From: Candidatus Eiseniibacteriota bacterium | GTDB taxonomy: Bacteria; Eisenbacteria; RBG-16-71-46 | Length of the DNA: 64,000 nt | Assembly: GCA_963717935.1 (NCBI GenBank) | Contig: CAVQXP010000003.1 | Location: 32,001-96,000 of the forward strand | Direction: 5' to 3' | Shown: positions 4,466-64,000 of the stretch, one piece after another | Numbering within the stretch: position 1 is the first letter of the stretch | Layout of the letters: each line of letters opens with the position of its first letter | The notes under the pieces: generated by a model | What the model saw: the letters and a program-made list of their open reading frames with translations, nothing else | Database searches by the model: none | Told to the model about the DNA's origin: nothing | Made by a program: the position numbers and the translations under genes

Positions 4466-7400
4466 ATGGACTCTGAGAATCAGCCCACACGGATGCGGTC
4501 TGACGGACGGGAGGCTTCGGCGTTCCCGGACGCCACGCCTCCCGAGACGGACGCTGCCAGCTTCCTGCTTGGCCGGGGGGCCCGCTTCCACCGTGACTCC
4601 CGGCGCATCGCCGCGGGTCTCGCGGTGCTGGCCGTGCTCGCCGTCGTCTTGATCAACGTTGGCATCTACCAGAACGCCCAGAGTCACCTCGTCCGCCAGC
4701 GCTGGGACCAGCTCGTCAGCAACACCGACGTCCGCCGTGACCAGGTCCGCGACCTGCTCGGGCGATTCACGAGCGAGGCGCGCTCCGTCGTGGAGCAGCC
4801 CCAGACCCGGGCGGCGCTGCTCGCGCTCTCCGGCGGAATCCCGGCACCCGAGCGCGACCAGTTGCGCCGCGAGCTCGACCGCACGGGGACACTGTTCGGC
4901 TTCCACGCCGTCCGCGTGCTCGACGTCCAGGGCCGTCTGCTCCTGGAAGGTCGCTCGGCCGGGCAGCATGACGGTGAACGCTTCACGAACCTCGCGCGAG
5001 AGGCGACGGCCGCGACCGAGAACGAGCCCCTGGTCGTGGACGCCTGGCGGGAGAGGACCGGCCAGGAGGCCATGACCCTCGCCCTCCCCGTGCGGACTCC
5101 GGAGGGGCGCACGGCCGCGGTCGTCGAGTTCGAGATCCACGCGGAAGACATGCTCCTGCCGTTGCTCACCCGCTGGCCGGGTTTCGGACCCTCCGCTGGC
5201 GCCTATCTGGTGCGCAAGCAGGGCACGGAGATCCAGTACCTGACGTCGCCCCCCGCGGGGTCCGGACTGAAGGTGGGCGATCGCGTGCCGGAATCGTCGC
5301 TGGACGCCCGCACCGCGGCCATGGCGGTCGAGGGCGTCGAGTCGCACATCGTGCTGCCGGACCGGGCTGGGAAGCTCCAGGCGGTGGTGACGCGCTACAT
5401 GCCCAGCGTGGGCTGGGGACTCGTCGGGCAGGCCGACTACGCCGAGCTTGCGCAGGGCATGGGTGTCGCGATCTACGGGCTGCTGGCGTTCGACCTTGTC
5501 CTGCTCATGCTGAGCGCGTCGGCCTTCTGGTTCTGGCGCCGTCAGTACAAGTCCGGGCTGGCGCAGCGCGAGATGGAGGTCACCCGGCGCCACGCCGACC
5601 GCGTGCGGGCCGTATTCGACACCGCGTTCGACGCCATCGTCACCTTCGATCGCGATGGTCATGTCCGCTCCGTGAACCGCGCGGCCCAGAGCCTGTTCGG
5701 CCGCCCGTCGACCGAGCTGGACGGGCGGCCCATCCACCGCTTCCTGCGGTGGGGCGTGGACGATCAGCCGACGAAGGAATTGCCCGCCATCGGCACCGTG
5801 ATCCGGGCCGAGGCGCTGCGCGCCGGCGGCAGCACCTGCCCGGTCGAGTTCGCGCTGGGCAGCTCCGGCGAGGACGAGGACCTGCTCTATTCGGCCATCG
5901 TGCACGACATCAGCCGACGGGTCGAGAGCGAGCGGCGCATCGAGGAGTTCGCCGAGGGGCTCGAGGTCAGCAATCGCCGGCTCGAGGAGCTGAATGCCCA
6001 GCTCGAAGAGGCGTCGCGGCTCAAGAGCGAGTTCCTCGCGAACACGTCGCACGAGCTGCGCACGCCGCTCAACGGGATGATCGGGTTCCTTCAGCTCGTC
6101 CTGGACGGCATGTGCGATTCGCCGGAGGAGGAGCGCGACTTCCAGCGCCAGGCGCTGGAGTGCTCGCGGCACCTGCTGGGACTCATCAACGACGTGCTGG
6201 ACATCGCCAAGATCGAGGCCGGCAAGCTCAGCCTCGAGATCACGCCGGTGGACCCGAGCGCGTTGTTCGACGAGGTCTACACCCTGACCCACGTCCAGGC
6301 CGCCCAGAAGGGCATCCGGCTCGCGTTCGAGCCGCCGGAGACGGGCGATCTGCGGCTGCGCGGCGACTTCGGAAAGATCAAGCAGGTCCTCATCAACCTG
6401 GTAGGGAACAGCCTCAAGTTCACCCCCAAGGGCTCGATCACGGTGCGTGCCGTGCCGCACGTGGACCTCGGTCACTGCATGATCGAGGTCGCGGACACCG
6501 GCATCGGCATCCCCGCGGACCGCCAGAAGGTCATCTTCGAGAAGTTCACACAGGCCGATGGCAGCACGACCCGCAAGTACGGCGGCACCGGCCTGGGCCT
6601 GGCGATCACGCGCAGCCTGGTCGAGCTCATGGGTGGCATCATCGGCGTGAAGAGCGAGGGCACCGGCAAGGGCTCGCGCATGTACTTCTCGCTGCCGCTG
6701 TGGAACGAGGAGGAGGAGGAGCGGCCCGCCAGGGAGGAGCACACCGACCGCATCGAGGGCCCCGTGGGCGGCCAGCTCGTGCTGATCGTCGAGGATGACG
6801 CCGTGTTCCGTCGCTTCCTCACCGTCCTGCTCCACGGGCACGGCTACCGCACGGTGGAGGCCCGCAGCGCCGAGAGCGGCTGGGTGCTGGCGCGGCGCCT
6901 GCGGCCTTCCGTGATCATCCTGGACTACGCCCTGGCCTGTGCCGAGAACGCCAACCTGCGCACCGGCTGGGATCTGGCGGAGCGCCTGACCTCGGACTCG
7001 AAGACGCGGCACATCCCGCTGGTCTTCGTGACCGGCTTCGAAGGCGAGCTGCGGGAGAAGCTCAAGGCCACCGCCTTCGCGCGGCAGCCCGTGCACCTCA
7101 TGAAACCGGTCGAGGGCAGCGTGCTGGTCTCGCGGATCCAGGAGCTGGTCGGCTCGACCGAGGGGCGCATCGTGCGCCTGCTGATGGCCGACGACGACCC
7201 GGCCGTGGGCGCCTATATCCGCAAGATCCTGCCCGACGATCGCTTCCACATCGAGCTGGCCACGAACGGAGAGGAGTGCCTGCACGCGCTGCGCACCCAG
7301 CCGCGTGGCTTCGACCTGCTGCTGCTCGACCTGATGATGCCGGAGGTCAGCGGCTTCGACGTGCTGCGCGAGATGACGCTTGCCGGGCTCGCCCCCGACC

Positions 7401-11192: not shown

Positions 11193-11437
11193 GGGCCTTC
11201 CTGTCGTGGAGCGCGCCTGCCCGCACCTGCGCGCGAGGCCATCGCTCCGTGGTTTCGGGATGCCGTGCCGGCGGGATCCGGCAGTCAAGAACGGCGGGAA
11301 CGTACCGTGTGCCTCCGCGGCTCACAAGCGGGCGGCAGAGCCCGGCCGGCGCGTGCCTTCGCGTGCCCCCCGGGCCTTGTGGTCTAATGTGCAGGGGCCG
11401 CCCACCCCGGACGGGGTGGGCCGCCCCGCGAGAGGGG

Positions 11438-13768
11438 GTGAAAACCACGCCAGAGCAGCATCCTGCTTCGCCACAGCGCCTGCGGCTCGAGATTCGCGGG
11501 GCGGTCCAGGGTGTGGGGTTCCGCCCCTTCGTCTTCCGCCTCGCCGGGGAACTGGCCCTGCCGGGCTGGGTCCTGAACGACGCCCGCGGGGTCTTCATCG
11601 AGGTCGAAGGCCCGCGCGAGACCCTGGAGCGTTTCCGCGAGCGGATCGTCTCGGAGCGCCCGCCGCGCGCCATCGTGCAGAGCGTCGAGGCCGCGTGGCT
11701 CCCGCCCTCGGGGTTCACGGCCTTCGAGATCCGTCACAGCAACGAGGCCGGCGTGAAGACCGCGCTGGTGTTGCCGGACCTGGCCACCTGCCCCGACTGC
11801 CTCGCCGAGACCCTCGATCCGGCCGAGCGGCGCCATGGCTATCCGTTCACGAACTGCACGAACTGCGGCCCGCGCTTCACCATCCTGTACGCGCTGCCCT
11901 ACGACCGGCCCAACACGACCATGCGCGGCTTCGTGCTCTGCGCGGAGTGCAGGCGGGAATACGAGGACCCGCGCGACCGCCGCTTCCACGCCCAGCCCAT
12001 CGGTTGCCCGGCCTGCGGCCCGGTCGTCGCCCTCTGGGACGCGTCGGGCGCGGGGCTGGTCCGCGGCGACGCGGCCCTCGCGGGCGCGGCGCGGGCGCTG
12101 GGCGAGGGCCGCATCCTGGCCCTCAAGGGTCTCGGCGGGTTCCACCTCGTGTGCGACGCGCGCAACGGGGACGCGGTCCGGCGTCTGCGTGAGAGGAAGC
12201 AGCGCCTCGGCAAGCCGCTCGCCCTGATGGTGCGCGACCTCGACCAGGCCCGCGAGTTGTGCGAGGTCTCGGACCTCGCGGCGCAGCAGCTCGCCTCGGT
12301 CGAAGCGCCGATCCTGCTCCTGCCGCGGCGTGCGGATGCGCCCGTGGCGCCGGAGGTGGCGCCGGGCAACCCGTATCTCGGCGTGATGCTCCCATCCACG
12401 CCGCTCCACCATCTCCTCCTGCACGCCTGCGCCTTCCCCGTCGTGGCGACCAGCGGCAACCTCACCGACGAGCCCATCTGCACGAACGAATACCGGGCCC
12501 TGCAGCGGCTCGGGGCCATCGCCGACGTCTTCCTGGTGCACGACCGCGCCATCGAGCGGCACGTGGACGACAGCGTGGCCTGGATCACGGCAGGCCGGGT
12601 GCGGCTGCTGCGCCGGGCGCGGGGCTGGGCGCCCCTGCCGGTGACGCTCGAGCGCGAGCTGCCGGTCATCCTCGCCGTGGGGGCGCACCTGAAGAACACC
12701 GTGGCCCTGAGCGTGGGCCGGCAGGTGTTCGTCAGCCAGCACATCGGCGACCTCGAGACCGAGGAGGCGATGTGCGCCTTCGAGCGCGTGATCGCCGACT
12801 TCCAGCGGCTCTACGACGTGCGGCCCGTGGCCATCGCCCACGACCTGCACCCCGACTACCTCTCGACCCGGTGGGCGCTGGCCGCCCCCGGCGGGGCGCG
12901 CCTGGTCGGGGTCCAGCACCACCACGCCCACCTCGTCTCCTGCCTGGCCGAGAACGGGGTGGAGGGCCGCGCCCTGGGCGTGTCCTGGGACGGTACGGGC
13001 TACGGGACCGACGGCACGGTCTGGGGCGGGGAGTTCCTGCTGGGGGACGCCTCCGGATTCGAGCGTGTGGCCCACCTCAGGCCCTTCCGGCTGCCAGGGG
13101 GCGAGGCTGCGGTCCGCGAGCCCCGCAGGGCCGCCCTGGGCCTGCTCTGGGAGGCCCGGGGCGAGGCGGCGCTGGCCGCGGAGGGTCCGGGGATCGGACG
13201 GCTGTTCGATGCTGCCGACCTCAAGGTCCTGGCCAGGATGCTGGACCGGGGCCTCAACAGCCCCGTCACCACCAGCATGGGCCGGCTGTTCGACGCGGTC
13301 GCGGCCCTGGTGGGCCTGCATCCGAGCACGACCTTCGAGGGCGAAGCGGCCATGGCCCTCGAATGGCTGGCCGACCCGGCGGAGCGGGGCGCCTATCCTG
13401 TAGACTCGCGGCCCGGCCCGGTCCCCGCGGGGGCGCGGCCGCCTCTCGTCCTGGACTGGGGGCCGCTGCTCGAGGCCGTGCTGGAAGATGTCCGCCGGGG
13501 TGTGCCGAGGGGCGTCATCGCGGCCCGCTTCCACAACGGGCTGGTGCGCGTGGCGGTGGACGTGGCCGCGGTGGTGGGCGAGGAGCGCGTGGCGCTCTCC
13601 GGCGGGTGCTTCCAGAACCGGCTCCTCACCGAGCGGCTGGCGGCGGCGCTGGAGCGGGCGGGCCACACCGTGCTGCTGCACGCGCAGGTGCCGCCGAACG
13701 ATGGCGGCGTGAGCCTGGGACAGATCGTCGTGGCCGCGGCGCAGTTGGGAATCGAAAGGGGAGACTGA
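11438..13768 (+). CDS. hypF: Carbamoyltransferase HypF
   Basis: [10 protein letters not shown], zinc fingers, [29 protein letters not shown]. Confidence 0.97.
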
Positions 13769-13770
13769 AC

Positions 13771-14073
13771 GTGTGTCTCGGCGTGCCGGGCAAGGTGCTC
13801 ACGGTCGAGGAGAACGCCCAGGGCCTGGCCATGGGCACCGTGAGCTTCGGTGGCGTGAACAAGGAGATCTACCTCGCCTGCGTGCCCGAGGCGAAGCCCG
13901 GCGACTACGTGATCGTGCACGCGGGCCTGGCCATCAGCATCATCAACGAGCAGGAGGCCGAGGAGACCTTCGAGATCCTGCGCCGGATGGACGAGCTGGC
14001 GGGGATCGAGGAACGTCCGCAGGACGCCTCCGGCTCCCCGCCGCCGCCGCCCGGGCCCGAACGCCAGGGGTGA
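13771..14073 (+). CDS. hypC: Hydrogenase chaperone HypC
   Basis: GTG start MCLGVPGKV, and GDYVIVHAG. Confidence 0.93.
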
Positions 14074-14075
14074 CC

Positions 14076-15160
<1,085 letters not shown>

Positions 15161-15164
<4 letters not shown>

Positions 15165-16234
15165 GTGACGCCGAGGCCGCGCCCGTCGAGTACCTGGGCC
15201 TGCAGTGCCCGATCCCGCTGAGCGAGTACCCGCAGGTGACGCTCGCCCACGGCGGCGGCGGACGGCTCACGCACGCGCTGATCGAGCGCATGTTCCTCGC
15301 GGCCTTCCGCAACCCCGCGCTCGAGCCGCTCCACGACGGCGCCGTGCTCGAGGTGCCGCAGGGCCGGATCGCGCTCAGCACCGACTCGTACGTGGTGAGC
15401 CCGCTCTTCTTCCCGGGCGGCGACATCGGTTCGCTCGCGGTGCACGGCACCGTGAACGACCTCGCCATGTGCGGCGCGTCGCCCCTGGCGCTCACCGCGG
15501 GCTTCGTGCTCGAGGAGGGCCTGCCCATGGACGACCTGTGGCGGATCGTGCGCTCCATGGCACGGGCGGCGAAGGACGCGGGCGTGAACATCGTGACCGG
15601 CGACACCAAGGTCGTGGACCGCGGCAAGGGCGATGGCGTGTTCATCAACACGACCGGCATCGGCCTGGTGCCCGAGGGCGTGAGCATCTCCCCGGCGCGC
15701 GCGCGGCCCGGGGACCGGCTGCTGCTGAGCGGGCGCATCGCCGACCACGGCATCGCCATCCTGTCGGTGCGCGAGGGCCTCTCGTTCGAGACCACGATCG
15801 AGAGCGACTCGGCCGCCCTGAACGGGCTCGTGGGCTCGCTGCTCGGGGCGCTCGGCGAGCGCGTCCACGTGCTGCGCGACCCCACGCGTGGCGGCGTGGC
15901 GAGCGCGACCAACGAGATCGCCGCGGCCGCGCAGGTGGGGCTGCGCCTCGAGGAGCGCGCGATCCCGCTGGCCGAGCAGGTGCGCGGCGCCTGCGAGATC
16001 CTCGGGCTCGACCCGCTCTACGTCGCGAACGAGGGCAAGTGCCTGGCCATCGTCGCTCCGGAAGCGGCGGAGCAGGCGCTCGCGCTCCTGCGCGCGCACC
16101 CGCTCGGGCGCGAGGCCGCCGTCATCGGCGAGGTGGTCGCGGACCACCCCGGCCGCGTGATGATGCACAGCCGCGTCGGCGGCATGCGCGTCGTGGACAT
16201 GCTCAGCGGGGAGCAGCTGCCGCGCATCTGCTGA
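15161..16234 (+). CDS. hypE: Hydrogenase maturation protein HypE
   Basis: AHGGGG, GTVNDL, GDTKV, RDPTRGG, and C-terminal LPRIC. Confidence 0.97.
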
Positions 16235-16722
16235 TGCGGCCGGGACCGGGCATGACCGTGAAGCAGGCAACGAAGCGGCGCCCGGAGGGCACGCGGGAGC
16301 GGGCCGGGGAGTCCCCCGGGCGCTGGGAGCGCGTGTGGGCCGTGGTGCGCCGCATCCCGCCCGGGCGCGTGGCCACCTACGGCCAGGTCGCGGCCCTCGC
16401 GGGCCTCGGCCACCAGGCGCGCCAGGTCGGCTACGCGCTCCATGCCCTGCCCGCCGAGGGCTTCGCCCCGTGGCACCGGGTGGTCAACGCGCGCGGCGCG
16501 ATCAGCCTGCCGCCGGGCGGTGGAGCCGACGTGACCCAGCGCCTGCGGCTCGAGCGCGAAGGCGTGCGCTTCGACGCGCGCGGGCGGATCGACCTCGAGC
16601 GCTACGGCTGGCGGCCCGGCGGGCGGGTCACCGCCGCCGCGTCGCGTTCGCCGCTGCGGGCCTCGGCATCGCCCAGGTCTGCAACGCCACGGGCAGGTGC
16701 CCGCGGTCGCCCACCGCGGTGA
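16234..16722 (+). CDS. Alkyltransferase-like (ATL/YbaZ, MGMT family) protein
   Basis: IPPGRVATYGQVA, RQVGYAL, and PWHRVVN (Trp in place of the MGMT Cys). Start could be 16252. Confidence 0.85.
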   Translation: MRPGPGMTVKQATKRRPEGTRERAGESPGRWERVWAVVRRIPPGRVATYGQVAALAGLGHQARQVGYALHALPAEGFAPWHRVVNARGAISLPPGGGADVTQRLRLEREGVRFDARGRIDLERYGWRPGGRVTAAASRSPLRASASPRSATPRAGARGRPPR

Positions 16723-17347
16723 TGCGGTAACCTCCGCCGGGCTTCACCTCGATCACGGTGAGGCTGCAGTTGGCGAGGCTCATCGTGAGCCAGAGTCTCG
16801 CGTCCGCGCCCAGCGCGCGGGTCACCAGCCAGCGGATCACGTTCCCGTGGCAGACCAGCACCTCCGTGCTGTCGCGCGCGGGCGAGGGGCGGAAGTAGCG
16901 GGCGAAGGTGCGCTCGAGTTGCACCGCGCACGAGTCGGCCTCGCCCGGCGCGAGACCCGCCATGACGTCCTTGCGGTAGGTGGGCGGCGTGCACTCGCGC
17001 AGGTCGCGGTCGGGCTCGGGGTTCCGGCCGGGCAGCGACCGCGCGATGATCTCCGCGGTCTCTCGCGCCCGCGTCAGGGTGCTCGCGTGCACGACGTCGA
17101 CTCGCGCGGGCCAGGCCGCGAGCCGCGCCCCGGTGAGCCGCGCCTGCTCCCGGCCCTCGGACAGCAGCGCCTTGCCGACCTCGGCATCGCGCGCGTCGTC
17201 CTCGTCGTAGACCCCGTGGCGGACGAGGATGAGCGTGCGCAGGCCCTTGCCCGGAGTCGCCTGGGCGTCGGCCCCGGGCGCGATTGCGCCGGCCAGCGTC
17301 AGCGTGCACAGGATGACCGCGCAGAACGGCCGCAGGCCCGGCCTCAT
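16628..17347 (-). CDS. Exported histidine phosphatase (PGAM5-like)
   Basis: Signal peptide, LVRHG, STLTRARETA, LVCHGNVIR. ATGA overlap with the hypB stop. Confidence 0.85.
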   Translation of the reverse strand: MRPGLRPFCAVILCTLTLAGAIAPGADAQATPGKGLRTLILVRHGVYDEDDARDAEVGKALLSEGREQARLTGARLAAWPARVDVVHASTLTRARETAEIIARSLPGRNPEPDRDLRECTPPTYRKDVMAGLAPGEADSCAVQLERTFARYFRPSPARDSTEVLVCHGNVIRWLVTRALGADARLWLTMSLANCSLTVIEVKPGGGYRITAVGDRGHLPVALQTWAMPRPAAANATRRR

Positions 17348-18012
17348 GACGCGGCCCCGCGCTTCTCCGACAGGCGCTCCTCGAGCAGGGCGCACCACTC
17401 GGCGATGCCCTGGCCGGTGGTGGCCGAGGTCACCAGCAGTGCGCCACCGGGCCGCAGCGCGGCGACCTGCGCGCGCGCCTCGTCGAGCTTGAAGGACACG
17501 TGGGGCAGCAGGTCGGCCTTCGTCACCAACGTCACCGCGGCCTTCGCGAAGATGGACGGGTACTTGAAGGGCTTGTCCTCGCCCTCGGTGACCGAGAGCA
17601 GCGCGACCTTGAAGTCCTCGCCCAGGTCGTAGGAGGTGGGGCAGACGAGGTTGCCCACGTTCTCGATGAAGAGCACGTCCAGCGGCCCCAGGTCGTGCGT
17701 CTCGAGCGCCCCGCGCACCTGCCGGGCGTCGAGGTGGCAGGATCCCCCGGTGAGGATCTGGTGGGCCGGGATGCCGAGCGAGCGCAGGCGGTCGGCGTCG
17801 CGCTCGGTGGCGATGTCGCCCTCGATGGCGCCGAGTCTCAGCTTCCCCCCGAAGGCGCGTACGGTCGCCTCGAGCAGCGTCGTCTTGCCGGAGCCGGGGG
17901 AGGAGATGAGGTTCACCACCAGCGTGCGCGCGGTCGCGAAGCGCTCGCGCAACGTCGCGGCCGCGGCCGCGTTGTCGGCCAGGATCCTCTGCCGTACGTC
18001 CACCTGGGTCAC
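17344..18012 (-). CDS. hypB: Nickel insertion GTPase HypB
   Basis: SSPGSGKTT, CHLDA, ENVGNLVCP, EGEDKPFKYP. Confidence 0.97.
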   Translation of the reverse strand: MTQVDVRQRILADNAAAAATLRERFATARTLVVNLISSPGSGKTTLLEATVRAFGGKLRLGAIEGDIATERDADRLRSLGIPAHQILTGGSCHLDARQVRGALETHDLGPLDVLFIENVGNLVCPTSYDLGEDFKVALLSVTEGEDKPFKYPSIFAKAAVTLVTKADLLPHVSFKLDEARAQVAALRPGGALLVTSATTGQGIAEWCALLEERLSEKRGAAS

Positions 18013-37311: not shown

Positions 37312-37683
37312 ATGCGCGCGTTCCTGCTGCTCCTGCCCGCCGGCGTGAGCGCGCTCCTCCTGGGCGCGCACTTCCTGCGCCGGGACGATCCCGGCCTGGT
37401 GGTCATCAGCCTGGTGCTCTTCGGGCTGCTCTTCGTGCGCCGGCTGTGGGCCGCGCGCCTCGTGCAGCTCGGACTGCTCGCGGGCGCGCTCGAGTGGCTG
37501 CGCACGCTGGCGGCACTGCTCCCCGCACGACGTGCCGCGGGCGAGCCCTGGATGCGCCTGGCCGCGATCCTCGGCGGGGTGGCGCTGCTGGCGCTGCTGG
37601 GCGCGGCGCTCCTCGAGACCCGCAGGCTCAGGGAGCGCTACCGCGGCCCCCGGCCCGCCGGGCGGGTCGGAGGAGCCCGCTGA
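37312..37683 (+). CDS. Hypothetical membrane protein
   Basis: About four TM segments, AHFLR motif. Confidence 0.7.
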   Translation: MRAFLLLLPAGVSALLLGAHFLRRDDPGLVVISLVLFGLLFVRRLWAARLVQLGLLAGALEWLRTLAALLPARRAAGEPWMRLAAILGGVALLALLGAALLETRRLRERYRGPRPAGRVGGAR

Positions 37684-37722
37684 GCCGGTAGCCGCTTCCA
37701 CCCGCCCGGGGCGGCTGGAACC

Positions 37723-38010
37723 TCAGGCGTCGAGGCGGACGGAGCAGCGACCGAAGCGGCCGAAGGCGAAGCTCAGCCGGGCGGGATGCGCGCGAGCCGC
37801 CAGCACGTCCCGATGGACGTAGAGGGCGATCCCGCCGGCGTCCAGGCACTCATGCCCGGCGGGGTCTTCCGGGATCTCGAGCGACCCGACCGGGCCGCGC
37901 TCGACCGTTCATCAGCCGTGCATGATCGCCTGGAGCGAGACATACAGTGCCCCGCCCCGGGCGGCGATGTACTCCCGGAGTTCCTCGGACTCGAAGCGGG
38001 CGTGTCGCAT
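37723..38010 (-). CDS. Candidate CC/Se-motif (HesB-like) selenoprotein with tandem UGA-UGA at codons 33-34
   Basis: MRHARFESEELREYIAARGGALYVSLQAIMHG-TGA-TGA-TVERGPVGSLEIPEDPAGHECLDAGGIALYVHRDVLAARAHPARLSFAFGRFGRCSVRLDA*. The frame stays open with coding-like codons, and a SECIS-like hairpin follows directly. Confidence 0.75.
37877..37904 (-). promoter_or_regulatory. Bacterial SECIS-like hairpin
   Basis: UCGAG-CG-CGGCCC-[GGUC]-GGGUCG-CUCGA. The loop starts 17 nt after the second UGA and 20 nt after the first. Confidence 0.7.
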
Positions 38011-38081
38011 GGCGGTCAGCATACCGGAAACCGCGGGGTGGGGCGATTCCCATCCGGGTCGTGCGCTCCTTCGTCTCCGGT

Positions 38082-38981
38082 CTAGGCCCGGCCCTGACGA
38101 CATGGCTGCGCGCGCCTCACGCTTTCCCACTGGATGGTGGGATGCACGATGCCGAAGCGCTCAGAAAGGTCGTGAGCGATGCGCGAGGTGAGATCGTCGT
38201 CGAAGGTCGCGCGGTCCGTGACGAGGTGTGCCGTGAGCGCGGTCTCGGTGGTGCTCATGGCCCAGATGTGGAAGTCGTGCACGTCGACGACGCCCGGCAC
38301 GGCCTCGAGATAGCCCCGGACCGCCACCGGGTCGATCCGGCCGGGTACGGCGTCCATGGCCAGATCGAGCGACTCCCGCAGGATCCTCCAGGCACCGACC
38401 ACGATGAGCGCGCTCACCAGCAGGCTGACGACAGGGTCGAGCCACGGCCAGCGGGTGAAGACCATGGCCACGCCGGCGAGGACGACTCCGAGGGAGACGG
38501 CTGCATCCGCCACGAGATGCGAGGCGGCGGCGCGCACGTTCAGATCGTCGCGACGGCCACGTCCCAGGAGCCAGGCGCTCAGACCGTTCACGAGGATGCC
38601 GAGCGAGGCCACGGCGATGACCGTGGGCGCGGCGACCGGCCCCGGATGACGAAGCCGCTGCACCGCTTCGAGCGCGACGGCGCCCACCGCGATCAGCAGC
38701 ACGACGGCGTTGGCCAGCGCCGCGAGGATGGTGGAGCGCCGCAGACCATAGGTGCGCCGGGTGCTGGGCGCGCGTCGGGCCAGGAGGATCGCGCCCCAGG
38801 CGAGCAGCAGGCCGAGCACGTCGCCGAGGTTGTGACCGGCGTCCGAGAGCAGTGCGAGGGAGCCGGACCGGAACCCGAACACGACCTCGAAGACGACGAA
38901 GGTGACGTTGAGCCCCACCGCCACGAGGAAGGCGGTGCGGACCCCGTCCGCGGCGGGCGGATGTGGATGGTCATGCGTCAT
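38082..38981 (-). CDS. Cation diffusion facilitator (CzcD/ZitB-like)
   Basis: SLALLSDAGHNLGD, HLVAD, VHDFHIW, HPTIQ. Confidence 0.92.
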   Translation of the reverse strand: MTHDHPHPPAADGVRTAFLVAVGLNVTFVVFEVVFGFRSGSLALLSDAGHNLGDVLGLLLAWGAILLARRAPSTRRTYGLRRSTILAALANAVVLLIAVGAVALEAVQRLRHPGPVAAPTVIAVASLGILVNGLSAWLLGRGRRDDLNVRAAASHLVADAAVSLGVVLAGVAMVFTRWPWLDPVVSLLVSALIVVGAWRILRESLDLAMDAVPGRIDPVAVRGYLEAVPGVVDVHDFHIWAMSTTETALTAHLVTDRATFDDDLTSRIAHDLSERFGIVHPTIQWESVRRAQPCRQGRA

Positions 38982-39014
38982 GTCGTCCTCGCGGCCGGCG
39001 CGCCGCCCGCGGAT

Positions 39015-39260
39015 TCACGCGGTCGCTCCGGACAGGATCTCCTTCAACTGTTCCACCGAGGGCACGCGTCCGGCGAACTTGAGCTCGCCATCGACGACGA
39101 GCCCGGGCGTGGACAGGATGCGATAGCCCAGGATGACGTTGAGGTCGGTGATCTTCTCGAGCTCGCAGTCGAGCCCGAGCTCCTTCACGGCGCGCTCGGT
39201 GTTCCGGTAGAGCCGTTCGCAGTTGGCGCATCCGGGGCCCAGGACCTCGATCCGGGTCAT
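39015..39260 (-). CDS. Small redox-active disulfide protein (thioredoxin_3 / MTH895-like)
   Basis: IEVLGPGCANC...STPGLVVDG. SD AAGGAG. Confidence 0.9.
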   Translation of the reverse strand: MTRIEVLGPGCANCERLYRNTERAVKELGLDCELEKITDLNVILGYRILSTPGLVVDGELKFAGRVPSVEQLKEILSGATA

Positions 39261-39307
39261 CTTCGTCTCCTTTCGGAAGAGCCCTCCGGACGGCGGAGGG
39301 CCCCGCG

Positions 39308-40342
39308 TCACATCAGCCAGTTGAACAGGTAGCCCACCAGGACGATCCCGACCGTGACCACCCCGAGGAACACCGCGATCAGCGCGGGTTTGAGCACCTT
39401 CCGCAGGATGATGGTCTCCGGCAGCGACAGCGCGATCACCGCCATCATGAACGCGAGCACCGTCCCCAGCGCGGCGCCCTTCTCGAGCAGGGCATGCACG
39501 ACCGGGATGATCCCGGCCGCGTTCGAGTACATCGGCACGCCGATGAGCACGGCGAGCGGCACCGACCACCAGGCCCCCCGGCCCATGATGGACGCCATGA
39601 AGTTCTCGGGCACCCACCCGTGGATGCCGGCGCCCACGGCGATGCCGATCAGGACGTAGGGCCAGACCTTGCCCACGATGTCGCGCACCGCCTCGAGCCC
39701 GCGGCCCAGGCGCTCCTCCCACGTCGTCCGGTGTTCGGGCAGCCCGGCCTCGCCCGCGTCCATCTGATAGACCCAGGGCTCGACGTGGCGCTCGAGCCGC
39801 AGGCGACCGATGACCCAGCCCGCGACGATGGCCACGGTCAGGCCGGTCCCGAGGTAGAGGGCCGCCACCTTCCAGCCGAACAGCCCGAACAGCAGGGCGA
39901 GCGCGACCTCGTTCACCATGGGGGCCGAGATCAGGAAGGAGAACGTCACGCCCAGCGGGATGCCCGCGGTCAGGAAGCCGATGAACAGCGGCACCGCCGA
40001 GCACGAGCAGAACGGCGTCACGATGCCGAGGGCGGCGGCCAGCACGTTGCCCACCGACTCGGCCTTGCCCGCGAGGATGGCGCGCGTGCGCTCGGGCGTG
40101 AAGAACGAGCGCACCACGCCGACGCCGAACACGACCAGCGTCAGGAGCAGGAGCACCTTGGGTGTCTCGTAGACGAAGAACTCGACCGCGCTGGCGAGGT
40201 GCGTGCCGGCGTCGAGCCCCAGCAGGTCGCGCGTGAACCACGCGGCCGCCTGCTGGAGCGCGCCGTAGAGCGCGACCCAGAGCAACAGGGCGCCCGCCAG
40301 GGAGAGGAGCAGGCGCGGAAGCCGCGCCGGGGGCCTGCTCAT
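39308..40342 (-). CDS. ArsP-family (DUF318) permease
   Basis: TPFCSCS, SAPMVNE, GVPMYSN, ALSLPE. Confidence 0.88.
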   Translation of the reverse strand: MSRPPARLPRLLLSLAGALLLWVALYGALQQAAAWFTRDLLGLDAGTHLASAVEFFVYETPKVLLLLTLVVFGVGVVRSFFTPERTRAILAGKAESVGNVLAAALGIVTPFCSCSAVPLFIGFLTAGIPLGVTFSFLISAPMVNEVALALLFGLFGWKVAALYLGTGLTVAIVAGWVIGRLRLERHVEPWVYQMDAGEAGLPEHRTTWEERLGRGLEAVRDIVGKVWPYVLIGIAVGAGIHGWVPENFMASIMGRGAWWSVPLAVLIGVPMYSNAAGIIPVVHALLEKGAALGTVLAFMMAVIALSLPETIILRKVLKPALIAVFLGVVTVGIVLVGYLFNWLM

Positions 40343-40349
40343 CGGGGTC

Positions 40350-41417
40350 TCACGCCGCCGGCTCGCGGAACCAGCGCCGCCGCAACCACAGCGCCACGTT
40401 CACCAGGCCGATCAGGGCCGGCACCTCGACCAGCGGCCCGATCACCGCCGCGAAGGCGGCGCCGTGGTGGATGCCGAAGGTCGCGACCGCCACGGCGATG
40501 GCCAGCTCGAAGTTGTTCGAGGCGGCGGTGAACGAGAGCGTCGCCGACTGCGGGTAGCTCGCGCCCACCCGCTTGCTCATGAAGAACGAGACCATGAACA
40601 TGACGACGAAGTAGATGAGCAGCGGGATGGCGATGCGCACCACGTCGAAGGGCAGCTGGACGATCTTCTCGCCCTTGAGCGAGAACATCACGACGATGGT
40701 GAAGAGCAGGGCGATCAGCGTGATCGGGCTGATCTTCGGGATGAACCGGCGCTGGTACCAGTCCCTTCCCTTCGCCCGCAGCAGCGCGAAGCGCGTGATG
40801 ATCCCGGCCAGGAACGGAATGCCGAGGTAGATGAAGACGCTCCGGGCGATCTCGGCCATCGTGATGTTCACGGCCACGCCCTTCAATCCGAGCCAGCCCG
40901 GCGCGAGCGTGATGAAGACGTAGGCGTAGAGCGGGAAGAAGAGCACCTGGAAGACCGAGTTGAAGGCGACCAGGCCCGCGCAGTACTCGCTGTCGCCCCG
41001 GGCCAGGTCGTTCCAGACGATGACCATGGCGATGCAGCGCGCCAGGCCGATCAGGATGAGCCCCACCATGTACTCGGGCTGGTCCCGCAGGAAGAGCACG
41101 GCGAGGCCGAACATGAGGATCGGGCCGACCACCCAGTTCTGCACCAGCGAGAGCGCGAGCACCCGCCCATCGCGGAAGACGCGGCCCATCTCCTCGTAGC
41201 GGACCTTCGCCAGCGGCGGGTACATCATGAGGATGAGCCCGATGGCGATGGGGATGGACGTGGTGCCGGCGTTGAAGCGGTTCAGGAAGGGCACCAGGCC
41301 GGGGAACCGCCAGCCACCGCCGACGCCGACGGCCATGGCGAGGAAGATCCAGAGCGTCAGGTAGCGGTCGAGGAAGGAGAGCCGGCCGGTGACTCCGGCA
41401 GGGGAGGGCTCAGGCAT
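40350..41417 (-). CDS. acr3: Arsenite efflux transporter Acr3
   Basis: [47 protein letters not shown]. Confidence 0.96.
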
Positions 41418-41886
41418 GCGAAGGTCCGCTTCGGCGGGAGGGCGCGCGCGCGGGCGATGCGCGCCGGGCCCGGCGGGCGGGGCGGGGTGCCGCGACCTGC
41501 GCGAGACGCGACGGCGCCCGCCGGGCCGGTGGCAGGGCGCACAGCGCCTCGACCGGGACGGCCTTCACGCTGCGCAACCGGCGGCGGTCCTCGAGGATGC
41601 GGGGCTCCCGGTCGAGCGGCCCGCGCAGCAGGGCCAGCACCGCGCGGGCGTAGGGGTTGCGCTTCTCCGTGGCGAGCGCGTAGTGGCTCCAGCGGCCGTC
41701 GCGCCGGTCGGCCACCAGTCCCGCGACCCGGAGCAGCGCCAGGTGCTTCGAGACCGTGGAGGGAGCGAGCCCGAGCACGGCCTGCACCTGGCAGACGCAC
41801 AGCGGGCCGGCCTCGAGCAGCTTGAGGATGCGCGTGCGGGTCGGGTCGCCGGCGGCCTTGAGCGCCGCCTCGAGCTCAAGCAGCAT
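41410..41886 (-). CDS. arsR: ArsR/SmtB metalloregulator
   Basis: [14 protein letters not shown] (alpha-3 Cys site), STVSKHL, GRWSHY. Confidence 0.9.
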
Positions 41887-41897
41887 GGCCGTCCTTC

Positions 41898-41944
41898 CAT
41901 TTCGCCATGTGACGAAATGTAGTATCATGGCGCGTGGCCGTCAA
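41898..41944. promoter_or_regulatory. Putative ArsR operator overlapping divergent promoters
   Basis: Inverted repeat CATTTCG-N8-CGAAATG (41898-41919). Minus-strand TTGACG-17 bp-TACATT. Plus-strand TATCAT at 41923-41928. Confidence 0.7.
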
Positions 41945-42038
41945 GCGGCTCCGGGTTCGCCGGGCCGTCCGTGCCGCCGCGGTGCCCGAGATCGAGAGGC
42001 TGCTCGAGCCCCGAACGCCGAGTCCAAGGAGGATCCCA

Positions 42039-42440
42039 GTGACAGGTCGCACCGGACGCACCGCGCTGCTGCTCGTGAGCCTGGTGCTCATCGCTGCCGT
42101 GCCCGCTCTCGCCCGCAAGGCCCCGAAGCCCGCGCCGCCCGCCGCGCTCCCGCGCCTCCTGGACCTGGGCGCGACGAAGTGCATCCCGTGCAAGCGCATG
42201 GCCCCCATCCTCGAGGCGCTCAAGGTGGATTACGCCGGCGCCGTGGACGTGCAGTTCATCGATGTCTGGCAGAACCCGCAGGCCGGCAGGCCGTACGGCA
42301 TCCGGCTGATCCCCACGCAGATCTTCTTCGACCGGGCGGGCCGCGAGCGGTTCCGGCACGAGGGCTTCTACGCCCGCAAGGAGATCGAGCGGATCTTCAA
42401 GGACAGTCTCGGCGTGGCCCTGCGCCCCGCGGCGAAGTAG
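42039..42440 (+). CDS. Exported thioredoxin-family protein
   Basis: GTG after AAGGAGG, signal peptide, CIPC, IPTQIF. Confidence 0.88.
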   Translation: MTGRTGRTALLLVSLVLIAAVPALARKAPKPAPPAALPRLLDLGATKCIPCKRMAPILEALKVDYAGAVDVQFIDVWQNPQAGRPYGIRLIPTQIFFDRAGRERFRHEGFYARKEIERIFKDSLGVALRPAAK

Positions 42441-42456
42441 CGGGACCGGGGGACGC

Positions 42457-43155
42457 GTGGACGTCCTGGAGGGTCTGAGCGAGCAGCTCGCCTCGGTCAT
42501 CGCCCACAGTCCCGCGCTGGCGCCGCTGGCCGCGTTCCTCGGCGGCGCGCTCACCGCGCTCAACCCGTGCGTGCTGGCGATGGTCCCGCTCATGGTCGGC
42601 TTCTCGGCCGGCCTGGTCGGGCGTGGCGCGACGGGGCGCCCCTGGCGGCGCACCCTGGGTTTCTCCCTGCTCTTCGTCGGGGGCTTCGCGCTCGAGCTGG
42701 CGCTGCTCTTCACCGTCTTCTCCGGCGCGACGGCGGTCCTGAGCGCGCCCTGGTGGCGCTACGTGCTGGTGGCCGTGTGCGCCGTCACCGCGCTGCACCT
42801 GCTCGGCTGGCTGCGCCTGCCGTCGATCCCCCTGCCGCCGGCCGCCGCGCGGGCCGCGGGCGCGCTGGGCGCGCTCACGCTCGGCTTCGTCTTCGGGATC
42901 GTCTCGCTGCCGTGCACGGGGCCGGTGCTGCTGCTGCTGCTGGCCCTGGTCCCGCGGATCGGCGCGGCCGCGGCGGGCGGCCTGCTGTTCGCCTACGGGC
43001 TCGGGCACTCGCTGCTGCTGCTCGTGGCCGGTACCTCGGTCGGCGCGGCCGCGGCGCTCGCCCGCCCGGGCCGTCTCCAGACCGCGACCCGCTGGGTGCG
43101 CGTGGTCGCGGCCCTCCTGATCCTCGCGGGCGGGGCCTGGTTGTTCACGCACTGA
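42457..43155 (+). CDS. CcdA/DsbD-family transmembrane electron transporter
   Basis: LNPCV and LPCTGP motifs, about six TM segments. Confidence 0.87.
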   Translation: MDVLEGLSEQLASVIAHSPALAPLAAFLGGALTALNPCVLAMVPLMVGFSAGLVGRGATGRPWRRTLGFSLLFVGGFALELALLFTVFSGATAVLSAPWWRYVLVAVCAVTALHLLGWLRLPSIPLPPAAARAAGALGALTLGFVFGIVSLPCTGPVLLLLLALVPRIGAAAAGGLLFAYGLGHSLLLLVAGTSVGAAAALARPGRLQTATRWVRVVAALLILAGGAWLFTH

Positions 43156-54607: not shown

Positions 54608-54874
54608 ATGAAGAAGGCGCGGTTCACGGAGTCGCAGATCGTGGCAATTCTGAAGGAGGGCGAGGCCGGCCTGACGGTGGCCGAGATCGCCCGCAAGCAC
54701 GGGATCAGCAAGAACACGTACTTCAACTGGAAGTCACGCTACGGCGGAGCGACGGTGTCGGATCTGAGGCGGCTGAAAGAGCTCGAGGCCGAGAACGCCA
54801 AGCTGAAGCGGATGTACAGCGAGCTGGCGCTCGAGAACGCGGCGATCAAGGACCTGCTTCACCGAAAACCGTAA
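54608..54874 (+). CDS. IS3 transposase OrfA
   Basis: MKKARFTESQI..HGIS..TYFNWKSRYGG..LEAENAKLK. Confidence 0.93.
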   Translation: MKKARFTESQIVAILKEGEAGLTVAEIARKHGISKNTYFNWKSRYGGATVSDLRRLKELEAENAKLKRMYSELALENAAIKDLLHRKP

Positions 54875-55728
54875 CGCCGTCCGCGAAGCGAGAGGCCGCG
54901 ATGTTCCTGGTGGCAGAGCACAAGCTCTCGGTGCTGCGAGCTTGCGCCATCGTGCGGTTCTCGAGGGCGGCGTACTACCGGACGCCACGCGCTCCGCTCG
55001 AAGCCGATGCCGAGGTGATCACGGCACTCCAAGCCATGGTCGAGAAGCATCCGCGTCACGGCTTCTGGAAGTGCTACCGGCGCATGCGGCGTCAGGGGCA
55101 TGCATGGAACCACAAGCGTGTGCACCGCGTGTACTGCGCGCTCAAGCTGAACCTGCCACGCCGCACGAAACGGCGGCTGCCGACCCGGCTGCGCCAGCCG
55201 CTGGATGCGCCGGCGACGCTGAACACGGTGTGGGCGCTCGACTTCATGTCGGATGCGCTGTACGGCGGTCGGAAGTTCCGCACGCTGAACATCATCGACG
55301 AGGGCAACCGCGAGGGGTTGGTGATCGACGTCGCGTTCTCGATCCCGAGCATGCGAGTCATCCGTGTGCTCGACCAACTGGTCGCGACCTACGGCCGGCC
55401 GGGAGCACTTCGAATGGATAACGGCCCGGAACTGATCTCGGAGGCGCTGGCCGAATGGTGCGGGCAGCGCGGCATCACGATGCACCACATCCAGCCGGGC
55501 AAGCCGGACCAGAACGCCTACATCGAGCGGTTCAACCGCAGCTACCGCGAAGACGTGCTCGATGCCTACCTGTTCGGATCGATCGAAGAGGTCCAGTCGA
55601 TCAGCGATGACTGGCTGGAGGACTACAACACCGAGCGGCCCCACGACAGCCTCGGCCAGGTGCCGCCACGGACGTTCTTGCCGAGGCGAAATCCACCCCG
55701 GGAGTCCAGCTTCGAACTGTCTACTTGA
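54865..55728 (+). CDS. IS3 transposase OrfB (DDE), in the -1 frame relative to OrfA
   Basis: WALDF, DNGPE, GKPDQNAYIERFN, YNTERPHDSL. A-AAA-C at the overlap is a possible slip site. Confidence 0.92.
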   Translation, partial: KTVTPSAKREAAMFLVAEHKLSVLRACAIVRFSRAAYYRTPRAPLEADAEVITALQAMVEKHPRHGFWKCYRRMRRQGHAWNHKRVHRVYCALKLNLPRRTKRRLPTRLRQPLDAPATLNTVWALDFMSDALYGGRKFRTLNIIDEGNREGLVIDVAFSIPSMRVIRVLDQLVATYGRPGALRMDNGPELISEALAEWCGQRGITMHHIQPGKPDQNAYIERFNRSYREDVLDAYLFGSIEEVQSISDDWLEDYNTERPHDSLGQVPPRTFLPRRNPPRESSFELST

Positions 55729-61736: not shown

Positions 61737-61881
61737 CCTGGGCCTCCCGTGGGAATGACGCGGCCATTCTATCCCACGCCGCATCCGTCTGGCACCCCGC
61801 CGCGCGCCCTGAAAACCCGCGTGGGTTGTGGCATACTCCCCGCCGCGAACATCGGCTCACCCTGGAGTGCGCGGAGACGAC

Positions 61882-62664
61882 ATGGAGCCCATGGAACTCA
61901 AGGAGATGAAGGCGGCCCACCGGGTCCTGGCCGCGCTCGACTACCCGCCGGGCGAGGTCGAGCGCGGCTACGCGAACCGGACGCTGCACGTGGACCTGGG
62001 CGCGAACACGATCGAGGCCCGGCCGGTCACGCAGTACATGAAGGACTTCTTCACCGGCGGCAAGGGGTTCGACCTCTACCTGATGTGGAAGTCCGTCCCC
62101 GGCCCGATCCCCTGGGACGACCCGCGCAACGGGCTCTACTTCTCCGCGGGGCCGCTGGCCGGAACGCCGTATTTCTCGGGCTCGGGCAAGTGCCTGGTCA
62201 CCGGCATCTCGCCGCTCACCAGCTCCGTCATGGACTGCAACGTCGGCGGGCACTTCGGGCCGCTGCTCAAGTTCGCCGGCTTCGACGCCCTCGAGGTGCG
62301 CGGCAAGGCCTCCGAGTTCGTGATGCTGGTCATCGACGGCGACGCGCACCGCGTCACGCTCGAGACCGCGCCGCACGAGGCGCTCGACTCCTACGACGTC
62401 GCCAGCCAGCTGCACCGCATGTACGCCCGCACGCCCGCCGAGCTGCAGGACATCTCGGTCGTGTCGGCGGGCCGGGGGGCGCTCCACACGCTGATCGGCT
62501 GCATCAACATCTCGTTCTACGACTGGAAGCGCCACGAGCCGCGCCTCAAGCAGGCCGGCCGCGGCGGACTGGGCAGCGTGATGATGAACAAGCAGCTCAA
62601 GGCGATCGTGGCCCGGACGGCGAAGAACCGTCCGCGCTGGGCGATGTCGGTGGAGGCGCCATGA
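61882..62664 (+). CDS. Stand-alone N-terminal domain of aldehyde:ferredoxin oxidoreductase (AOR/WOR family)
   Basis: GGKG, GPLAG, ISPLT..DCNVGG.FG..LKFAGFDAL, AGRGGLGSVM..K.LKAIV. Stops at the end of the N-domain with an ATGA overlap. Confidence 0.82.
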   Translation: MEPMELKEMKAAHRVLAALDYPPGEVERGYANRTLHVDLGANTIEARPVTQYMKDFFTGGKGFDLYLMWKSVPGPIPWDDPRNGLYFSAGPLAGTPYFSGSGKCLVTGISPLTSSVMDCNVGGHFGPLLKFAGFDALEVRGKASEFVMLVIDGDAHRVTLETAPHEALDSYDVASQLHRMYARTPAELQDISVVSAGRGALHTLIGCINISFYDWKRHEPRLKQAGRGGLGSVMMNKQLKAIVARTAKNRPRWAMSVEAP

Positions 62665-63212
62665 GCCCCGGAGGGAATGGCTCCATGCCTACGGTGATCG
62701 TTCCGGACGTGCTCGGGGTGGACGCCATCGTGGACCGCTGGGGCGCGGACCCCGAGTTCGCCGTCGAGATGCTGCAGGACGTCCAGAAGCACTACCGGCA
62801 CCTGCCGAAGACCGCGCTCGAGCGCATCGCCGAGCGCACGCACGCCGACCTGGCGCGGCTCTACCACATCGCCACCTTCTTCAAGGCGTTCTCGCTGACG
62901 CCGCGCGGCGAGACCACGATCCAGGTCTGCACCGGCACCGCCTGCCACGTGCAGGGCGCGGCGCGGGTGCTCGACGCCTTCGGCCGCGAGCTGGGCGTGA
63001 AGCCGGGCGAGACCACCGCGGACCAGAAGTACAGCCTCGAGGGCGTGCGCTGCCTGGGCTGCTGCGGGCTGGCGCCGGTGGTGACCTTCGGAGCGGAGCT
63101 GGTCGGCGGGGTGGACTCCTCCAAGGTCGGCAAGCTGATGCGCCGGCACCGCAAGACCGGCTCCGTGGTCGCGCGGCAGGCGAGCGCCGCGGCGGAGGAC
63201 GCCGATGCCTAG
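62661..63212 (+). CDS. NuoE/HydC-like [2Fe-2S] subunit
   Basis: ATFFKAF, VCTGTACH, CLGCC.LAP. Confidence 0.9.
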   Translation: MSPGGNGSMPTVIVPDVLGVDAIVDRWGADPEFAVEMLQDVQKHYRHLPKTALERIAERTHADLARLYHIATFFKAFSLTPRGETTIQVCTGTACHVQGAARVLDAFGRELGVKPGETTADQKYSLEGVRCLGCCGLAPVVTFGAELVGGVDSSKVGKLMRRHRKTGSVVARQASAAAEDADA

Positions 63213-64000
63213 GGTGACCCTCGAGAACCTCGACACCCTGGCGCGCGAGGCCCAGCGGCGCCACGCGGGCTGGAAGTCCATGCTCATGGTCTGCGCCGGC
63301 ACGGGCTGCGTCTCGGCCAAGTCGCTGCCCCTGCGCGATGCCTTCCGCCAGGAGCTCGAGCGCCGCGGCCTGCAGGACGAGATCAAGGTCGTGGCCACGG
63401 GCTGCAACGGCTTCTGCGCCCACGGGCCGATCTGCGTGGTCCAGCCCGAGGGCGTGTTCTACGAGCGCCTCAAGGCCGAGGCCGTGCCCGAGCTGATCGA
63501 GTCGCACTTCGTGAGGAAGCAGCCGCTCGAGGACTTCCTCTACCGCTCGAGCGGCGGCGAGAAGACGGTCCCGCTCGAGAAGGACATCGAGTTCTTCGCC
63601 AAGCAGCAGTGCATCGCGCTGCGCAACCGGGGCCGGATCGACCCCGAGGACATCACGGACGCGATCCGCACCGGCGCGTACCAGGCGCTCGCGAAGATCC
63701 TGCGCGAGGGGCTCGACGGCGACACGCTCGTCCAGCGACTGGTCCGCTCGGGGCTGCGCGGGCGCGGCGGCGGCGGTTTCCCCGCCGGCGTCAAGTGGAA
63801 GTCCTGCCTCGAGGCCGCGCGCGCGCAGGACGTGCGCCCCTTCATCGTCTGCAACGGCGACGAGGGCGACCCGGGCGCCTTCATGGACCGCAGCATCGTC
63901 GAGGCCGACCCGCACGCCGTGATCGAGGGCATGCTGATCGGCGCGCGGGCGCTCGGCGCCACCGAGGGCTTCGTCTACATCCGCCACGAGTACCCGCTGG
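63205..64000 (+). CDS. NuoF/HydB-like NADH/FMN-binding subunit (partial, runs off window)
   Basis: N-terminal CAGTGC..GCNGFC domain, SGLRGRGGGGFP, CNGDEGDPGAFMDR. Confidence 0.92.
   Translation, partial: MPRVTLENLDTLAREAQRRHAGWKSMLMVCAGTGCVSAKSLPLRDAFRQELERRGLQDEIKVVATGCNGFCAHGPICVVQPEGVFYERLKAEAVPELIESHFVRKQPLEDFLYRSSGGEKTVPLEKDIEFFAKQQCIALRNRGRIDPEDITDAIRTGAYQALAKILREGLDGDTLVQRLVRSGLRGRGGGGFPAGVKWKSCLEAARAQDVRPFIVCNGDEGDPGAFMDRSIVEADPHAVIEGMLIGARALGATEGFVYIRHEYPL

Follow-up and report, generated by a model that had tools for sequence, protein, structure and literature searches.

Tandem in-frame UGA codons and a single coding-region hairpin in a bacterial gene: a candidate selenoprotein with adjacent selenocysteines

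Bacterial selenocysteine (Sec) insertion is taught as the decoding of one UGA at a fixed distance from one hairpin. A small gene on the minus strand of the DNA analysed here (the 'window', the whole stretch of 64,000 nt, with a GC content of 71%) raises the question of whether two UGA codons lying side by side in one reading frame might both be decoded as Sec, served by a single such element. The features concerned are these:

37723..38010, minus strand: candidate selenoprotein gene, 95 sense codons plus stop (translation with TGA as U, orthologues, AlphaFold single domain)
37909..37914, minus strand: UGA UGA in tandem and in frame (codons 33-34), proposed Sec-Sec (all six bases invariant in 5/5 loci)
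37881..37898, minus strand: candidate SECIS upper stem-loop, GCGGCCC-GGUC-GGGUCGC, codons R38-L44 (RGPVGSL), centroid structure
37876..37900, minus strand: 25-nt block in which every base is invariant, including nine consecutive third-codon positions (five-locus alignment A5, 5/5 loci)
37744..37746, minus strand: codon of Cys89, in the motif F-x-F-G-x-x-G-x-C (C89 invariant in alignments A6 and A3)
37696..37720, no strand assigned: GC-rich inverted repeat of 12 nt, 92% complementary, 1 nt between arms, just past the stop of the gene

We put the probability that this locus (hereafter the UU gene) encodes a real Sec-Sec selenoprotein served by one SECIS at roughly 80%. A preliminary description of the locus had inferred as much from the letters of the window, and the inference is supported as far as sequence can take it, by the presence of UGA-UGA in five of five loci, by flanks that evolve as coding sequence and by a confident single-domain fold that runs across the pair. 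The same description placed the gene at 38010-37723 on the minus strand, with TGA TGA as codons 33-34 and 61 codons beyond, and every coordinate and count in it is correct: the start ATG lies at 38010, 32 sense codons precede the TGA pair, and 61 sense codons follow it before a terminal TGA at 37725-37723. With TGA translated as U the product reads MRHARFES...AIMHG-U-U-TVERGPVGSL...FGRFGRC...LDA. GC content at codon positions 1, 2 and 3 of this frame is 0.75, 0.52 and 0.86, and no other frame shows a coding signature.

Within the window the TGA pair and the hairpin alone are not beyond chance, and it is the relatives that carry the case. Counting both strands, the window contains 34 copies of TGATGA where about 15 would be expected. 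TGA is the stop codon of 19 of the 27 family-matched genes in the window, none of which has a second in-frame TGA after its stop, and a scan of the window for other frames continuing through a TGA returned two sites, both of them ordinary gene ends with the next gene in frame. The inverted repeat past the UU gene separates it from a convergent ORF for a 123-aa membrane protein (37312-37683); no T run follows the repeat, which may be a terminator-type hairpin lacking that run, and a consensus scan for promoters and terminators found none.

Relatives were sought in one genome per species with a four-sequence alignment as query, and of the 72 pattern matches four encode a relative, with 59-83% protein identity over residues 1-93/95:

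L001, uncultured bacterium: related locus with TGA TGA
L002, Acidobacteriota: related locus with TGA TGA
L003, Candidatus Eisenbacteria chromosome: related locus with TGA TGA, the closest relative
L004, Acidobacteriota: related locus with TGA TGA

The two TGAs stand in frame at codons 33-34 in 4/4 of these loci, and thus in 5/5 when the window is included. The comparison rests on five DNA sequences, the window and L001-L004, which make up alignment A5. Variable sites at codon positions 1, 2 and 3 number 11, 6 and 15 of 31 in codons 2-32, before the pair, and 9, 7 and 14 of 18 in codons 46-63 and 15, 6 and 25 of 32 in codons 64-95, after it, the last count leaving out L003. L003 carries a 1-nt insertion after codon 65 (6190-6200; A5 column ~196) which breaks the frame, the protein of the original frame resuming downstream; the insertion is either an assembly indel or the mark of a decaying copy. 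Substitution of this coding type on both sides of the pair argues that both halves are translated, and in the same frame. A lack of conservation past the UGAs had been named in advance as grounds for giving up the Sec-Sec reading, and the data contradict it, the downstream codons varying as coding sequence does.

Translation of the second half by a fresh start is difficult to accommodate. No in-frame ATG, GTG or TTG occurs from the pair to codon 69 in the window and in L001, so that codons 35-68 are not translatable by a new initiation there; L002 and L004 have in-frame GTG right after the pair, at codons 36 and 37, L003 has an in-frame ATG at codon 46, and no start position past the pair is common to all five loci. 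Public annotation breaks the gene, as had been anticipated of standard gene callers, which were expected to split or miss it: the calls are fragments that stop at the pair or start past it. Some 20 relatives, at 41-60% identity, are represented by fragments only. An exhaustive search of 1.84 billion representatives gave 24 matches, 22 of which are fragments starting past the pair (query residues 36-65) and one of which, P0019, is a 32-residue fragment that ends exactly at it. Among the database fragments, P0003 has half of its sequence called in a neighbouring frame. The remaining match of the exhaustive search, P0006, is a 548-residue repeat protein matched in eight stretches and was discounted as an artefact of low complexity. 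A profile search gave ten matches, all fragments, of which five are N-terminal, and four of these end ...AIMHG. No full-length form with Cys was found by single-sequence word-indexed, exhaustive or profile searches of protein databases, and the profile search repeated at E ≤ 10 returned the same ten proteins and, again, no full-length Cys form.

A small family with a vicinal Cys-Cys or Cys/Sec pair had been proposed for this sequence, with a HesB-like character. A family of this description is found in NCBIfam under NF041239 ('CC/Se motif family (seleno)protein'), and with C standing for U it is the sole library match to the protein (E 1.2e-9), its CC motif being implied solely by the name. 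The match spans the pair, residues 8-75 aligning with profile positions 6-73 of 91, and all four of the orthologues scanned match the same family, the window protein scoring best. The score of 38.1-38.2 bits nevertheless lies under the curated 40-bit cutoff, and on this sequence evidence the UU protein is treated here as an outlying relative of NF041239, a near miss and not a called member. Neither the read-through protein nor its orthologues had a real Pfam match, the only one reported being NinD (E 0.18, one of four), and a search of PDB sequences with the family profile gave a chance match only (E 0.37).

An AlphaFold model of the read-through protein, built from an 18-sequence alignment, has a mean pLDDT of 88.8 and a pTM of 0.78, forms one domain and contains no segment under 50. 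Strands 21-31 and 35-43 pair as a beta-hairpin in the model, with the Sec pair in its turn. The best nine structural matches in Foldseek are all IscA/SufA/HesB-type proteins or DsrR, and include AQ_1857 and HI1723; they are weak, with a best E of 0.03, TM of 0.37-0.51 and none at E ≤ 0.001. Sequence models for HesB/IscA (Pfam Fe-S_biosyn and TIGR01911) gave no match even at E ≤ 10. What remains of the HesB-like proposal is accordingly a weak resemblance of the predicted fold, a lead at the level of fold and not a family assignment. Near the C-terminus F81, F83 and G84 are nearly invariant (alignment A2), and the conserved Cys89 is a possible third ligand beside U33 and U34.

The candidate SECIS lies directly past the pair. 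Its core consists of 7 bp and a 4-nt GGUC loop, with an energy of -12.3 kcal/mol, and the first loop G falls 20 nt past the first UGA and 17 nt past the second. Relative to the U of the first UGA the stem-loop occupies nt 17-34, and relative to that of the second nt 14-31; a hairpin set between two canonical spacings in this way is expected if it has to act on both codons. A review of prokaryotic selenoproteomes gives, in the legend to its Fig. 2, constraints for bacterial SECIS elements: a loop of 3-9 nt, a stem of 4-16 bp, G in the loop's first two positions, a spacing of 16-37 nt and an MFE ≤ -7.5 kcal/mol (PMC13188914). The hairpin falls within these limits for both UGAs, against a background in which 132 of the 1237 TGA sites in the window (10.7%) precede a hairpin of at least 7 bp that does likewise. 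It also fits the description in PMC4605307 of a 6-8 bp stem with a conserved G about 20 nt 3' of the UGA, variation being accommodated by a flexible SelB hinge. The energy of the 61-nt fold is not exceptional (z = 0.49; 129 of 200 shuffles at least as stable). A permissive Rfam scan of 37650-38100 gave no SECIS family and four chance matches to microRNA families (E 2.4-8.4), and at Rfam gathering thresholds only tRNA-Asn was reported. A search of the window for further copies of the hairpin, allowing up to three mismatches, gave four matches, namely the hairpin itself and three with three mismatches, which is chance level.

Conservation of the hairpin provides support that is real and moderate in strength. 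Codons 37-45 have 0, 1 and 0 variable sites of 9 at codon positions 1, 2 and 3, invariant third-codon positions in A5 total 39 of 96, and a run of at least nine invariant third positions arose in 909 of 100000 shuffles. The invariance of the 25-nt block could come partly from conservation of the RGPVGSL residues and a strong GC3 bias. Across 16 relatives, the most distant at 41% identity, GPVG does not vary and S43 hardly does, a conservation that fits a double constraint on protein and RNA. Because the hairpin is invariant in 5/5 loci it shows no covariation. As first described, the hairpin also had a lower stem (UCGAG/CUCGA); the upper stem-loop is indeed present and conserved in all five loci, but substitutions in L002 and L004 break the lower stem. 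Such a loss agrees with the statement in PMC4513850 that the upper SECIS alone stays folded while the UGA sits in the A site.

On the Sec-Sec reading, the gene would yield a single cytoplasmic protein of 95 residues, with codon 33 and codon 34 each decoded as Sec. The single short SECIS, with its 7-bp stem and GGUC loop formed by the codons of the conserved RGPVGSL motif, would bring SelB-GTP-Sec-tRNA(Sec) to the mRNA entrance for the first UGA; once that Sec has been inserted and a single translocation has taken place, the upper stem, still folded, could recruit a second SelB complex for the second. The efficiency of Sec insertion at fdhF is put at 30-40% in PMC4513850; if each step proceeded at that efficiency, arithmetic gives a full-length yield of about 10-15%, the remainder being a released 32-residue peptide, and the full-length yield is probably low. 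The product would have a beta fold like that of IscA/HesB, the Sec-Sec pair being exposed where the hairpin turns, and would carry a conserved Cys close to its C-terminus. Family scans, Rfam and ARAGORN found none of selA, selB, selD and tRNA-Sec in the 64-kb window, and none of selA, selB, selC and selD was found in the ~8-12 kb around L001-L004.

Could the tandem UGAs instead be a reinforced true stop, ending a 32-residue peptide, with the downstream 60 codons belonging to a separate gene or reached by reinitiation? Public gene calls yield exactly two such pieces, the GTG codons at 36 and 37 in L002 and L004 could serve as starts, and UGAUGA holds an AUG able to support stop-start coupling. 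That AUG, however, sits in another frame with a non-coding GC pattern, and codons 35-68 are conserved as protein, yet remain startless until codon 69 in the window and L001 and until codon 46 in L003. The confident AlphaFold model moreover pairs strands 21-31 and 35-43 across the break, and a double TGA closes none of the 27 ordinary genes of the window, so that a reinforced stop appears very improbable. Scarcely credible is a pseudogene, or a pair of sequencing or assembly errors for TGC/TGT: a change from TGC to TGA needs one base, L003 is frameshifted and P0003 is half-called in another frame, but both TGAs recur in five independent assemblies at 59-83% protein identity, and both flanks are under purifying selection.

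The same continuous protein would also result from UGA read-through without Sec, by a near-cognate Trp or Cys tRNA, a suppressor tRNA or partial reassignment of the codon, with the hairpin acting only as a stimulant. Here it counts that Sec machinery is unseen in the window and that nothing in the sequence identifies the inserted residue. On the other hand, TGA ends 19 of the 27 window genes and is therefore not reassigned, two leaky read-through events in a row would be very inefficient, the sole family match is to a curated (seleno)protein family, and in both its G-first loop and its spacing the hairpin is typical of elements that bind SelB. Read-through of this kind seems very improbable to us, and decoding of both UGAs as Sec is the reading that we retain.

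The setting of the gene bears on what such a protein might do. In the window the UU gene is the last of a same-strand row whose upstream genes occupy 38082..41928 on the minus strand, with two further genes diverging from the row (all assignments from the NCBIfam scan):

41410-41928, minus strand: ArsR-type regulator
40350-41417, minus strand: ACR3 arsenite efflux protein
39308-40342, minus strand: SaoE/SO_0444-like permease
39015-39257, minus strand: ArsE/MTH895 thioredoxin-like protein
38082-38981, minus strand: CDF metal efflux transporter
41934-42440, plus strand: thioredoxin-domain protein, divergent from the ars row
42457-43155, plus strand: CcdA/DsbD-like membrane protein, divergent from the ars row

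The UU gene of L001 is divergent from ArsC-ACR3-ArsE-permease and has the same thioredoxin and CcdA-like pair as the window directly downstream on its own strand, and L003 is syntenic with the window (CDF, ArsR, MBL-fold hydrolase and EttA), with CDF and ArsR upstream of the UU gene. Linkage to arsenic or metal resistance thus holds in three of the five loci (window, L001 and L003). The neighbourhood differs in L002 and L004, where molybdopterin synthesis genes and P5C dehydrogenase lie upstream and NuoE/F-type genes downstream.

Other observations on the window may be recorded here. The permease at 39308-40342 has matches to two efflux families, SaoE and SO_0444, and the CcdA/DsbD-like protein at 42457-43155 to the DsbD part of selenoprotein TsoB, in each case below curated cutoffs; SaoE, SO_0444 and TsoB are described in the review as selenoprotein-associated or selenoprotein-containing metal-resistance systems (PMC13188914). 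A protein of 278 aa with an aldehyde:ferredoxin oxidoreductase N-terminal domain is encoded at 61828-62664 on the plus strand, beside P5C dehydrogenase, and is followed by NuoE/NuoF-type genes at 63205-63999 (+); in L002 and L004 the UU gene itself stands between P5C dehydrogenase and NuoE/F-type genes, a different setting, but one that recurs. The AFOR-like ORF was suspected of being interrupted, a view rejected on finding a stand-alone AFOR_N domain and then the NuoE/F-type genes. Within it, TGATGATGA at 62579-62587 (+) contains three overlapping TGA triplets, out of frame with the covering AFOR_N ORF. An IS3-family transposase at 54608-55728 (+) consists of two ORFs (88 aa and 275 aa) in the usual orfA/orfB arrangement. 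The maturation genes hypF, hypD and hypB, at 11249-18012, indicate a [NiFe] hydrogenase in the organism, and no hydrogenase large-subunit gene was seen in the window.

A role in metalloid binding or in a relay is suggested by the position in an ars/metal-efflux operon, the thioredoxin-type neighbours and the fold. The selenol pair, with Cys89, might be a chelator of soft metalloids or metals, As(III) for example, and either pass them to efflux or act in sensing; alternatively, a vicinal diselenide might cycle in a thiol/selenol relay with the thioredoxin-type neighbours. The metalloid-binding role, predicted from fold and neighbours, we would place rather below an even chance. The wider proposal of a UU family defined by adjacent UGAs, one coding-region SECIS and a vicinal Sec-Sec at a beta-hairpin tip for arsenic-type metalloids falls somewhat short of one.

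How unusual such a pair would be can be gauged from published inventories. The review of prokaryotic selenoproteomes cited above, from 2026, lists 119 families and subfamilies in its Table 1; the multi-Sec entries have the forms UxxU, CxU, UxxxxU or separate sites, and no UU motif is listed in the whole of that table (PMC13188914). According to Mariotti et al. 2016, few genes with several Sec were known outside Lokiarchaeota, namely SelP, SelL, MsrB and VhuD (PMC4989117), and Zhang and Gladyshev 2008 reported a ferredoxin-thioredoxin reductase read with two Sec (PMC2398784). In the main texts of the BSepDB paper (PMC13326102) and the deep-Sep paper (PMC12013277), terms for multiple, two, adjacent, tandem or consecutive Sec had no match, and nothing relevant to adjacent or consecutive Sec or UGA in bacteria stood among the top 25-30 literature matches listed. 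ArsM_AhpD_UU (NCBIfam) was first taken as a curated case of adjacent UU; its listed motifs are UxxG and CxxU, with three Sec (PMC13188914), and the name therefore does not imply adjacency. An adjacent Sec-Sec is not listed among the bacterial selenoproteins of these sources, though one may already be annotated elsewhere.

If the conserved UGA-UGA is what it appears to be, spacing tolerance and SelB turnover would permit two insertions one codon apart, and SelB would be able to reload on one SECIS after a single translocation, making the UU gene a compact natural test case for paired Sec insertion. A vicinal Sec-Sec would be chemically unusual, either as a strained eight-membered diselenide ring or as a very soft bidentate ligand, and its place in arsenic/metal resistance operons suggests that selenium has a part in the handling of metalloids. 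Public annotation splits or misses the family, every database relative found being a fragment, and selenoprotein finders should therefore allow adjacent UGAs.

Several known systems resemble the UU gene or its product in part. The arsenic metallochaperone ArsD is a small protein of ars operons that binds As(III) through a vicinal Cys-Cys and a third Cys; for the UU protein it is a functional analogy only, with no relation of sequence or fold found. IscA combines Cys35 with Cys99/101, an arrangement that the UU pair and the C-terminal Cys may resemble, the chalcogen residues of the predicted model lying at a beta-hairpin turn and a Cys near the C-terminus; the sequence model of the HesB-like selenoprotein TIGR01911 (motif UxGP) is not matched by the UU protein. 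At the level of RNA, the loop of the E. coli fdhF SECIS also reads GGUC. Both elements lie directly 3' of the UGA within the coding region and have a short upper stem-loop with apical G and U, that of fdhF running over nt 15-31, counted from the UGA, and having G23 and U24 in its loop (PMC8659212), and these limits are bracketed by the two spans here, 17-34 from the first UGA and 14-31 from the second. They differ in that the 7-bp stem here lacks a bulged U, and in that the element here would have to serve two adjacent UGAs. NF041239 shares with the UU protein a small size of about 90 residues and a match that spans the pair; its motif as listed in Table 1 of the review, however, is CxxU with one Sec (PMC13188914), as against two adjacent conserved Sec here. 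Closest in the number of Sec are SelL, in which, according to PMC4989117, one SECIS supplies two Sec and a diselenide is formed, and the UxxU Prx-like, NF041115 metal-binding, FmdB-family, ferredoxin-thioredoxin reductase CxU and TsoB UxxxxU proteins, which are likewise entered with two Sec per short motif (PMC13188914, Table 1). In SelL and in those multi-Sec proteins 1-4 residues stand between one Sec and the other, whereas the two would be directly adjacent here, and the eukaryotic 3'-UTR SECIS of SelL obeys no tight spacing rule, in contrast to the position-sensitive bacterial SECIS that would have to serve both codons of the UU gene.
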